DNA of 6,359 bases from a virus. Taxonomy: Duplodnaviria; Heunggongvirae; Uroviricota; Caudoviricetes. The stretch is from IMG/VR virus record IMGVR_UViG_2619619134_000014, one strand, 5' to 3'. This document shows positions 1 through 6,359 of this stretch, one piece after another. The notes under the pieces are model-generated. The model saw only the letters and a program-made list of their open reading frames with translations, made no database searches and was not told the DNA's origin. Within the stretch, counting starts at the first letter, position 1, and the number at the start of each line of letters is the position of its first letter. The position numbers and the translations under genes were made by a program.

Positions 1-276
1 TTACCGACTGCGGCCTGAGTTTTTTAAGTGACGTAAAATCGTGTTGAGGCCAACGCCCATAATGCGGGCTGTTGCCCGGCATCCAACGCCATTCATGGCC
101 ATATCAATGATTTTCTGGTGCGTACCGGGTTGAGAAGCGGTGTAAGTGAACTGCAGTTGCCATGTTTTACGGCAGTGAGAGCAGAGATAGCGCTGATGTC
201 CGGCGGTGCTTTTGCCGTTACGCACCACCCCGTCAGTAGCTGAACAGGAGGGACAGCTGATAGAAACAGAAGCCAC
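1..276 (-). CDS. insA: IS1 InsA protein (91 aa)
   Basis: Translation [91 protein letters not shown] matches IS1 InsA from memory, including the zinc-finger-like CxxC...CxxC N-terminus and the HTH region. Confidence 0.95.
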
Positions 277-3838: not shown

Positions 3839-4132
3839 ATGCCAGCGCCTCTGTATGGTGCGGACGACGCGCGCCGCTGTTCCGGCAATTCCGTATCAGA
3901 GGTGCTGGATAAATTCAGAAAAAACTACGATCGGATAATGTCGCTACCGCAGGAAACGAAAGAGGAAAAGGAATTTCGCCATTGTATATGGCTTGCAGAG
4001 AAAGAAGAACGCGAGCGGATTTACCAGACATCAATCCGACCATTCCGCAAAGCCACATATACCCACTTCCCTGAAATTGACCCGCGCCTGCGTAATTATC
4101 GATCACGCTATGGCGCTATCAGTAATGACTGA
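3839..4132 (+). CDS. hypothetical small phage protein (97 aa); possibly Abc2-like anti-RecBCD, unverified
   Basis: ORF with AGGAG 6 nt upstream of ATG 3839. Translation [97 protein letters not shown]. Its size and position downstream of the recombination genes are reminiscent of P22 abc2, but I cannot confirm sequence identity from memory. Confidence 0.6.
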
Positions 4133-5342: not shown

Positions 5343-5585
5343 ATGTTCAAACGCTGCATCACCAAGTGTGGAAGCACACCTGACATCCAAGCTTTTATTA
5401 ATGAAGATGGTAAGCTTGTTGTTGAGAGGAGTGGTCCTTTTATTAGCAAACAACTTATCATTACCTCTCCAGCGGAGATGGCCGGGGAATGGATAGTTTC
5501 TGAACCAGAGGAGTTGCACATCCCGCTTCCTTATGGCCCTCAGGGACTGATTTATAACCGTTATGTTCAGAAGGAGGCGGGTTGA
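5343..5585 (+). CDS. hypothetical small protein (80 aa), moron-like
   Basis: Internal ATG of track ORF 5301..5585, with a G-rich SD-like GGGGGG about 7 nt upstream. Translation MFKRCITKCGSTPDIQAFINEDGKLVVERSGPFISKQLIITSPAEMAGEWIVSEPEELHIPLPYGPQGLIYNRYVQKEAG. No family recognised. Confidence 0.5.
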   Translation: MFKRCITKCGSTPDIQAFINEDGKLVVERSGPFISKQLIITSPAEMAGEWIVSEPEELHIPLPYGPQGLIYNRYVQKEAG

Positions 5586-5661
5586 CAATGTCAGGCATAA
5601 CATCGCCGAGAAATCGAAAGAAAAACAGAACAAGGTAAACGTTGACCTTGCAGCATCAGGC

Positions 5662-5844
5662 ATGGAGTACAGAGAGCGCCTTAACATACCTGTTATCACT
5701 GAGCAGGTATCATGAGAGCAACCTGAGCACTCACGCGAGTATTTCATGGAGCGCATCAGATACTATCGCGAGCAGTCGTTAAACATGCCCAAGGGAAGCA
5801 ACCCATGGTATATCGATATGGATGAACAGAACGCCAAGAAGTAA
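5662..5844 (+). pseudogene. small ORF interrupted by an in-frame TGA at 5713..5715 (about 60 codons if read through); candidate decayed gene
   Basis: Manual translation of one frame gives MEYRERLNIPVITEQVS-stop-EQPEHSREYFMERIRYYREQSLNMPKGSNPWYIDMDEQNAKK-stop. The same frame is open back to 5551. A second frame carries AAGGAGG (5571-5577) followed by ATG 5588 encoding only 16 basic residues (MSGITSPRNRKKNRTR). An intrinsic terminator follows. Confidence 0.35.
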
Positions 5845-5864
5845 ACGCAATTTGAACGAATGCG

Positions 5865-5890
5865 AACCCGCCGAGTGCGGGTTTTCTTTT
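5865..5890 (+). terminator. putative Rho-independent terminator
   Basis: AACCCGC (5865-5871), loop CGAGT, GCGGGTT (5877-5883), followed by TTTCTTTT. This is a 7-bp GC-rich stem with a T-rich tail, 20 nt after the TAA at 5842-5844. Confidence 0.6.
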
Positions 5891-5933
5891 ATCTGAACTC
5901 GCTACGGCTAGTTTTGTTTTATGGAGATGATAA

Positions 5934-6101
5934 ATGCACTTCCGAGTCACAGGTGAATGGAATGGAGAACCATTCAACAGAGTTATCGAAGCGGAGAACA
6001 TCAACGACTGCTATGACCACTGGATGATATGGGCGCAGATAGCGCATGCAGACGTAACCAATATTCGAATTGAAGAACTGAAAGAACACCAAGCCGCCTG
6101 A
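5934..6101 (+). CDS. hypothetical small protein (55 aa)
   Basis: Below the ORF-track size cutoff; found manually. GGAG lies 7 nt upstream of ATG 5934. Translation MHFRVTGEWNGEPFNRVIEAENINDCYDHWMIWAQIAHADVTNIRIEELKEHQAA. It is flanked by intrinsic terminators on both sides. Confidence 0.55.
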   Translation: MHFRVTGEWNGEPFNRVIEAENINDCYDHWMIWAQIAHADVTNIRIEELKEHQAA

Positions 6102-6114
6102 TGGCGGTTTTTTA
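6093..6114 (+). terminator. putative Rho-independent terminator overlapping the stop codon of the 55-aa gene
   Basis: GCCGCC (6093-6098), loop TGAT, GGCGG (6103-6107), followed by TTTTTTATT. The TGA stop (6099-6101) lies in the loop. Confidence 0.6.
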
Positions 6115-6158
6115 TTGCCTGATTTGCAGGTTCGATTCCCTATTCGGAGATAGCACTC

Positions 6159-6359
6159 ATGCAACACGAACTACAACCTGATTCACTGGTTGATTTGAAA
6201 TTCATCATGGCTGATACTGGCTTCGGTAAGACCTTCATCTATGACCGGATTAAGTCCGGCGACCTGCCAAAAGCCAAAGTTATCCACGGGCGAGCAAGAT
6301 GGTTATATCGTGACCATTGTGAATTCAAAAATAAGCTCTTAAGCCGCGCCAATGGGTAA
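6159..6359 (+). CDS. alpA: AlpA-family phage regulatory protein / excisionase-like DNA-binding protein (66 aa)
   Basis: Translation MQHELQPDSLVDLKFIMADTGFGKTFIYDRIKSGDLPKAKVIHGRARWLYRDHCEFKNKLLSRANG fits the AlpA/Vis-type helix-turn-helix pattern (..TG.S..TIY..I..G.FP.P.K.G.R...W.). GGAG lies 9 nt upstream of the ATG. Confidence 0.72.
   Translation: MQHELQPDSLVDLKFIMADTGFGKTFIYDRIKSGDLPKAKVIHGRARWLYRDHCEFKNKLLSRANG

Follow-up and report, generated by a model that had tools for sequence, protein, structure and literature searches.

The phage lambda orf55 cassette in a defective KplE1-type prophage: a promoterless small gene between two predicted terminators

The DNA considered here, called the window throughout, is the whole 6,359-nucleotide stretch of the IMG/VR Caudoviricetes record IMGVR_UViG_2619619134_000014, and the element it comes from is a defective KplE1-type lambdoid prophage of the argW-dsdC site. 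Towards its right end lies a short gene between two hairpins which, judging by sequence, is the known orf55 cassette of phage lambda: a hairpin, a leader bearing a Shine-Dalgarno (SD) sequence, a gene of 55 amino acids (aa) and a second hairpin overlapping the stop codon. The first-pass annotation of this DNA had described a 55-aa open reading frame (ORF) at 5934..6101 with its own SD, bracketed by terminators, and both parts of the description hold, an ATG-initiated ORF being present behind a GGAG at 5923-5926 and hairpins being predicted on the plus strand at 5864-5884 and 6091-6110. The cassette is made up as follows.

5864 to 5893, plus strand: upstream intrinsic-terminator-like hairpin (stem-loop 5864-5884), GAACCCGC-CGAGT-GCGGGTTT with the T-rich tail TCTTTTATCT; at the position of lambda t3, with another stem
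5895 to 5920, plus strand: t4-equivalent leader element, GAACTCGC-TACG-GCGrGTTT followed by TTTTGTTTT
5923 to 5926, plus strand: SD of orf55, GGAG, 7 nt 5' of the ATG; kept in nearly all upstream variants
5934 to 6101, plus strand: orf55 (lambdap35) coding sequence, 55 aa, ATG start, stop codon TGA at 6099-6101
6091 to 6116, plus strand: downstream intrinsic-terminator-like hairpin (stem-loop 6091-6110), AAGCCGCC-TGAT-GGCGGTTT followed by T6, with the tail TTTATTGCCT; the predicted t5 of lambda

A homology search with the 55-aa protein identified it as phage lambda Orf55 (NP_597778), with 100% amino acid identity over residues 1-55 to the product of J02459 29121-29285 (complement), an ORF that, read in the pL direction, comes immediately before lambda xis, and it matches the phrog_676 profile over positions 1-55 of 55 (E 6.6e-40). 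RefSeq calls the gene, as the hypothetical protein WP_000545733.1, in a genome that is 100% identical to the window over positions 5700-6359 (locus L001), and the HK140 record labels its own copy 'similar to lambdap35' and annotates a 'rho-independent terminator' downstream; the DNA of both lambda and HK140 aligns with the window across the cassette. In the literature orf55 is the last ORF listed for lambda's exo-xis region (PMC3824215), later papers date its naming to 2002, and lambdap35 was not included in a CRISPRi essentiality screen (PMC10695390). Window and lambda share the protein, the leader, the SD and the downstream hairpin with the stop codon in its loop, as well as the place of the gene, the last of the pL operon before the excisionase gene. 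They differ in the stem of the upstream hairpin, which in the window belongs to the module of a neighbouring theta gene (GAACCCGC/GCGGGTTT, against ATCCTCGC/GCGGGGAT in lambda), in the t4-equivalent, which is weakened, and in the next gene, which is torI instead of lambda xis and has no int after it; pL, N and the immunity region are gone from the window element. The layout, thought unusual for a prophage early region when first described, is in fact the canonical lambda order ea8.5-t3-t4-orf55-t5-xis, a published prediction (PMC4195576).

orf55 is a real protein-coding gene under purifying selection. A comparison of 38 distinct 168-nt alleles shows 3, 1 and 16 variable sites at codon positions 1, 2 and 3, and pairwise dN/dS against the window allele lies between 0 and 0.16. 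An exhaustive hidden Markov model (HMM) search of 1.84 billion representatives returned only 53 proteins at E<=1e-3, most of them the E. coli protein in fragmentary or fused form and a handful true divergent homologues of 51-57 residues. When the homologues of Proteus, Morganella and bat-gut virome phages (33-50% identity, same length) are aligned, W9 and E19 are invariant and F3, N10, D22 and D25 nearly so; conservation of the ORF across related elements, which had been held to be decisive, therefore extends to homologues of 33% identity. For Orf55, an acidic protein with a pI of 4.9 and a net charge of -6, AlphaFold2 predicts a β-β-α-β fold (pLDDT 89.5). The converse, that the segment is an untranslated leader or 3' untranslated region between ea8.5/theta and xis/torI, has next to no chance of being correct and is effectively refuted by the comparative data, since the third-position bias and low dN/dS, the length and the motifs W9, N10, E19, D22 and D25 kept at 33-50% identity, the conserved SD and the confident fold prediction all speak against it. 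An antisense ORF of 82 aa at 5919..6167 is open in most variants, but was rejected as a gene because the substitutions, at third positions of the plus-strand frame, fall on its first codon positions.

The hairpins at 5864-5884 and 6091-6110 look like intrinsic terminators and are more than a chance finding. Each has 8 base pairs, 5 of them G-C, and the two are the best terminator-like sites in a consensus scan that found 10 such sites in the whole window, compared with 6.4 +/- 2.6 in shuffles. Both show the anatomy of an intrinsic terminator on the transcribed strand, a G+C stem followed directly by a U-tract, with the T-tails on the plus strand only and none on the reverse strands, and RNA folding gives -12.3 kcal/mol (z -2.3) for the upstream and -13.0 kcal/mol (z -3.1) for the downstream structure, the latter holding the orf55 stop codon TGA (6099-6101) in its loop. 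At the t4 position GGCTAG replaces GGCGAG/GGCGGG, a G-to-T change that weakens the hairpin, and the hairpin scan detected none there in the window. An Rfam scan gave only a sub-threshold match to STnc130 on the minus strand, which at 24 bits against a gathering score of 55 was rejected as chance.

Among related loci the upstream hairpin is found in 90 of 104, the t4-position hairpin in 84 of 104 and the t5 hairpin in 96 of 106, t5 being nearly invariant across the 106 loci; the t5 stem-loop of the window equals that of lambda exactly and the T-rich tail differs by one base. The upstream position is occupied by at least three different stem sequences (that of lambda, that of the window, which goes with the theta gene, and one reading ATCCTCG/CGAGGAT), all of which keep a hairpin with a T-run, so that here, as in the stop-overlapping downstream hairpins of five lineages discussed below, structure is kept despite sequence change. 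Bloch et al. (2014) predicted t3, t4 and t5 in lambda with ARNold, using Erpin and RNAmotif, and the sequences they printed correspond to lambda's upstream hairpin, to a second one within the leader of orf55 and to the downstream one (PMC4195576); our own scan of lambda agrees with these predictions.

It is unlikely that the hairpins are mainly something other than terminators, such as stabilisers of RNA 3' ends, processing barriers or relics of recombination joints between mosaic modules. On either side, homology between phages does break within or beside the T-tract, the torI module of K-12 has a T-tract without a hairpin, and the hairpins would still form in the RNA of an antiterminated operon. 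However, the full terminator anatomy is confined to the transcribed strand and is kept by different stems, and ARNold called these structures as terminators independently (PMC4195576).

The first-pass annotation went too far in regarding the cassette as a self-contained transcription unit. A promoter scan found no sigma70-like site on the plus strand downstream of 1306, and thus none between the upstream hairpin and the ATG or nearby, the upstream T-run being only ~40 nt from the orf55 ATG. With no promoter near it, orf55 depends on read-through from upstream: it is a promoterless gene between two co-directional predicted terminators, the opposite of a moron-type unit. Morons of lambdoid phages, in the concept of Hendrix and Juhala, are promoter-gene-terminator insertions, and the cassette is like them in being a small accessory gene found in some phages and missing from others amid otherwise syntenic genes, with its own terminator and with mosaic joints at its edges. 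The downstream terminator is the t5 hairpin, and the presence/absence polymorphism is seen in K-12 KplE1, which is without the gene and has its joint at the T-tract. The scan of the plus strand, however, revealed no promoter belonging to orf55, and where a moron has its promoter there is a terminator, an arrangement that predicts silence rather than expression in the lysogen.

orf55 is co-directional with the leftward early operon Rad52-ssb-abc2-ea22 and with torI, and in the window it lies in the leftward early (exo-xis) region directly upstream of the excisionase gene. Since N antitermination lets transcription from pL reach xis and int in lambda (PMC2951348), the simplest reading is that orf55, too, is expressed only when transcription is N-modified. 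As a delayed-early gene it would then be transcribed, in an intact phage, only by N-antiterminated RNA polymerase from pL; the predicted terminators would halt unmodified polymerase and be overridden by N antitermination, and the halting of polymerase would keep orf55, and above all the downstream excisionase gene, silent in the lysogen. The pL operon of lambda has N-suppressible terminators, tL1, tL2 and tL3, the first of them in an N-tL1 arrangement, and the lambda hairpin at 31265-31287 (t1 of PMC4195576) is presumably tL3; in the papers found, tL3 figures only as a vector part. Like these, t3 and t5 would be intrinsic terminators inside an antiterminated early operon, and in the divergent lineage P0107 the order N, orf55 homologue, terminator corresponds to the tL1 position; unlike them, t3 and t5 are known only as computational predictions.

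The orf55 cassette is carried by ~54% of complete E. coli genomes (2946/5426). In most copies the DNA match begins in the 3' half of the upstream hairpin or in its T-tract and ends ~13 nt past the downstream T-run; mosaic homology between phages breaks at or beside both hairpins, the downstream boundary lying within or just beyond the T-tract, and past this tract the 106 fetched loci diverge into at least five unrelated contexts. The gene that follows orf55 was counted by junction-spanning searches in the complete E. coli genomes.

lambda-type xis (PF07825) directly after orf55: 1748 genomes
torI directly after orf55: 653 genomes
AlpA/HTH-type (helix-turn-helix) gene directly after orf55: 235 genomes
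an unrelated 114-aa gene after orf55, itself then followed by xis-int: 422 genomes

The 114-aa gene (MSDLAMKVLKWQSTGDVG..., locus L069, 3197-3541) stands between orf55 and lambda-type xis-int in prophages of O26 and other STEC (Shiga-toxigenic E. coli) types and has no Pfam match. In several loci with this insertion the t5 stem is mutated, GGCGG to GGAGG. A scan of genome contigs for further relatives returned almost only exact lambda DNA in ~48.4-kb contigs of unrelated taxa, the orf55 DNA being found in contigs of up to ~48.4-48.5 kb that are attributed to Shewanella, Pseudomonas, Oceanobacillus, Kitasatospora, Neobacillus and others (loci L004, L008, L012, L013, L016, L017, L019 and others). 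These are almost certainly lambda control-DNA contamination of assemblies, and the scan says nothing on synteny.

Outside the E. coli type, the gene recurs in divergent lineages with a variable position in the operon and with or without flanking hairpins (identities are relative to the window protein).

Klebsiella type (L107), 76%: directly before an Exc-Int pair; downstream hairpin and U-run, stop codon in the loop
P0107 (L114/L115), 50%: directly after N; downstream hairpin and U-run, stop codon in the loop (tL1-like position)
P0110 (L116), 49%: theta, then the orf55 homologue, then DUF1233-Int, with other genes between; no flanking hairpins
Bat-gut phage (L105), 47%: between N and cIII/kil; downstream hairpin and T6 overlapping the stop codon
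P0108 (L108), 45%: one gene before a pair of recombination directionality factor (RDF) and Int genes, overlapping its neighbours; no flanking hairpins
P0111 (L111), 43%: after a cI-like repressor and before kilR/gam/recT; strong upstream terminator, downstream hairpin with z -4.2
Proteus phage (L103), 40%, and Morganella phage (L104), 33%: early-left operon; no flanking hairpins
P0112 (L117), 38%: rightward operon, after O- and P-like genes; no flanking hairpins
P0116 (L118), 36%: after a repressor; strong upstream terminator only

An RDF gene is linked to orf55 in E. coli, Klebsiella, P0108 and P0110, and not in L103, L104, L105, L111, L114/115, L117 or L118. Adjacency to an excisionase gene is therefore a property of the E. 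coli/Klebsiella clade and a few others, not of the family, which argues against a dedicated role in excision control. Such a role, or one in superinfection exclusion, had been suggested earlier for the product, as a factor encoded by an autonomous, insulated unit and tied to the adjoining xis/int-type regulator, and it now seems quite improbable. In its favour are the position of the cassette directly before three types of excisionase gene in the genomes counted above, the Klebsiella copy upstream of an Exc-Int pair, and the P0110 and P0108 copies, no more than one or two genes away from an RDF-Int pair. Against these stand the missing promoter, the roughly six divergent lineages in which the gene comes right after N, after a repressor, ahead of kil or within the nin region, and the 422 genomes with another gene between orf55 and xis; K-12 KplE1, moreover, excises with TorI and without orf55 (PMC2951348). 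The protein itself offers no help to this view either, being acidic and matching no Pfam family at E<=1, DNA-binding or otherwise, no NCBIfam family, and no defence family at E<=0.1 in a PADLOC search. The variable placement fits a mobile accessory gene of delayed-early, and in some phages possibly immediate-early, expression.

The stop-overlapping terminator is kept in 5 of 11 lineages (E. coli, Klebsiella L107, L114, L105 and L111) and the upstream one in 3-4 of 11. In the five, the stop codon lies in or beside the loop down to 43% identity, with unlike C-terminal tails (GCC GCC TGA; GCC GCC CAC TGA; GCC GCC TAA; ACT GCC TAA; GCT AAC TAG), and in P0111 the codons GCC GCC TAA themselves make up the 5' arm and the loop. 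This raises the idea of a translation-coupled gate, in which ribosomes ending on orf55 would mask the downstream hairpin, so that read-through of unmodified polymerase into xis/torI would need translation of orf55; the gene would then be in part a leader-type sensor, and its protein, separately, a small acidic binder of a host factor. The persistence of the stop codon at the loop although the tails differ speaks for such a gate, and ribosome-dependent weakening of stop-overlapping terminators has been reported. Purifying selection, however, acts across the whole protein and not just on its end, what follows the hairpin in L111, L114 and L105 is no RDF gene, N-modified polymerase would ignore the hairpin anyway, and forming the hairpin out of the final codons may be no more than the tightest way of fitting in a terminator. 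We regard the gate as very unlikely; if true, it would be an unrecognised extra layer of control on prophage excision.

As to the protein, the most probable role of Orf55 is to bind a host protein and modulate it in early lytic growth. The only published proposal, made with a modelled structure in 2021, is that Orf55 is similar to Gp2 of phage T7 and might bind RNA polymerase (PMC8614690). T7 Gp2 and the epsilon subunit of Gram-positive RNA polymerase (YkzG/RpoY) have the small β-β-α-β fold that is predicted for Orf55, and the polymerase, via this Gp2/epsilon-like fold, would be the best available candidate target. In a Foldseek search of the PDB, T7 Gp2 ranked first (4lk0_M, E 0.055, TM 0.59-0.62, 23% identity) and the epsilon subunit YkzG third, both below significance, with identities to Gp2 and YkzG ranging over 18-23%. 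A structure search of BFVD gave no match at E<=1e-3, and Gp2-type inhibitors appeared there only at ranks 29-40. hhalign, run with a Gp2 sequence validated beforehand, aligned Orf55 with Gp2 in register at 26% identity, with a probability of 2.3% and a pairwise E of 0.021; Gp2 was not listed at E<=10 in a profile search of the PDB, and neither this search, nor Pfam, nor hhalign established sequence or profile homology to Gp2.

More specifically, Orf55 could be the temperate-phage counterpart of T7 Gp2 and RNA polymerase epsilon, damping sigma70 transcription early in lytic growth via the beta' jaw and the downstream-DNA channel. This is a tentative idea that we hold to be doubtful, even though the Foldseek ranking, the in-register alignment and the presence of Gp2-type inhibitors among the BFVD matches all point in its direction. 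Orf55 is small and acidic, and Gp2 is acidic as well. The adjoining lambda protein Orf73 is a proven modulator of RNA polymerase (PMC9239242), which also favours it. Gp2, however, needs two arginines of strand β3 for binding to the beta' jaw and for function (PMC8614690). In the hhalign register these residues, R56 and R58, correspond to N43 and R45 of Orf55; position 43 holds N, D or E in the family, at no time a basic residue, and R at position 45 is confined to the E. coli/Klebsiella clade, the others having E, V, H, N, D or Q there. Membership of the Gp2 family is therefore not supported, although Orf55 could still act in a Gp2-like manner. A further possible role of Orf55 is in the block of host replication and the cell cycle that maps to orf73-ea22-ea8.5-orf55, the block of host replication initiation having been assigned to this interval by Sergueev et al. 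(2002), as cited in PMC9239242.

The remaining features of the window place the cassette in its prophage.

1 to 276, minus strand: IS1 InsA ORF (PF03811 and PF12759), at the left window edge
3839 to 4132, plus strand: P22-type Abc2 anti-RecBCD gene (PF11043, E 5.6e-63), followed by DUF7739 and Ead/Ea22-like genes
5563 to 5844, plus strand: pseudogene of a theta (HolE/HOT-like) DNA polymerase III homologue (PF06440, E 3.4e-15), with an in-frame TGA at 5713-5715
6159 to 6359, plus strand: torI, KplE1-type RDF (excisionase) gene (RefSeq WP_001163428.1 'TorI'; phrog_66 excisionase), with an SD GGAG at 6146-6149

By Pfam and PHROG assignments the order on the plus strand is Rad52'-ssb-abc2-DUF7739-ead/ea22-...-theta'-orf55-torI, and the nin genes ninH, ninG, ninX and ninB lie on the minus strand. 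The succession Abc2-DUF7739-Ead/Ea22 makes the early-left region P22/HK620-like rather than lambda-like; the Orf55 encoded there is identical to that of lambda despite this. The nin genes abut a 5'-truncated Rad52-family gene at 2742-2911, which keeps profile positions 119-153 of 153, and N, cI, cro, O and P are missing from the window together with pL and pR. The prophage is defective as a consequence of this deletion, and with pL, N and the immunity region deleted the cassette in the window is probably silent. No complete E. coli genome covers at least 80% of the window. The upstream hairpin belongs to the theta module, and the arrangement theta-orf55-torI occurs in only ~19 complete E. coli genomes; RefSeq flags an 'internal stop' in the theta copy of the 100%-identical locus. 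In the divergent lineage L116, too, a theta gene lies upstream of the orf55 homologue, a few genes away.

The first-pass annotation had called the gene downstream of orf55 an AlpA-like regulator and had raised the question of whether the 55-aa gene always adjoins alpA-int. An excisionase-type gene does adjoin orf55 here, as it usually does in E. coli; RefSeq names it TorI, however, and the AlpA and HTH_17 matches of the 6159..6359 protein are below threshold (E 0.12 and E 0.0079). No integrase gene follows torI, and there is no alpA-int pair, because intS lies at the opposite end of the prophage: in a related genome the prophage sits between tRNA-Arg/intS and dsdC, the host gene dsdC coming after torI. 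The arrangement is that of the KplE1/HK620/Sf6-type module of TorI RDF and IntS, with torI attR-proximal beside dsdC and intS at the other end by argW, a module in which integrase and RDF genes are transcriptionally uncoupled and RDF production alone triggers excision (Panis et al., PMC2951348). In K-12 KplE1, which differs in being without orf55, homology to the window starts at the T-tract before torI. TorI also matches the PADLOC model mad1 (mads_1) over its full length (E 7.6e-14); a candidate defence system thus has, among its component models, one for an excisionase-like HTH protein.

Taken as a whole, the reading we prefer is that of the lambda orf55 cassette in a defective KplE1-type prophage, dependent on antitermination for its expression and encoding a binder of a host protein, and we give it a probability of about 0.65. 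As a discovery the cassette matters little, since it is already known: its terminators were predicted in 2014, the structure of its product was modelled in 2021, and RefSeq annotates the gene. The value lies in the clarification of one gene of the best-studied phage, a gene under strong purifying selection that about half of complete E. coli genomes carry. The additions are modest, namely the counts of its linkage to three excisionase families, the mosaic joints at the terminators, the stop codon kept in the hairpin loop in homologues as divergent as 43% identity, the shifting place of the gene in the operons of distant relatives and the lack of conservation of the Gp2-type arginines. Together with the promoterless, terminator-bracketed layout, these comparative points offer concrete handles for testing what orf55 does.

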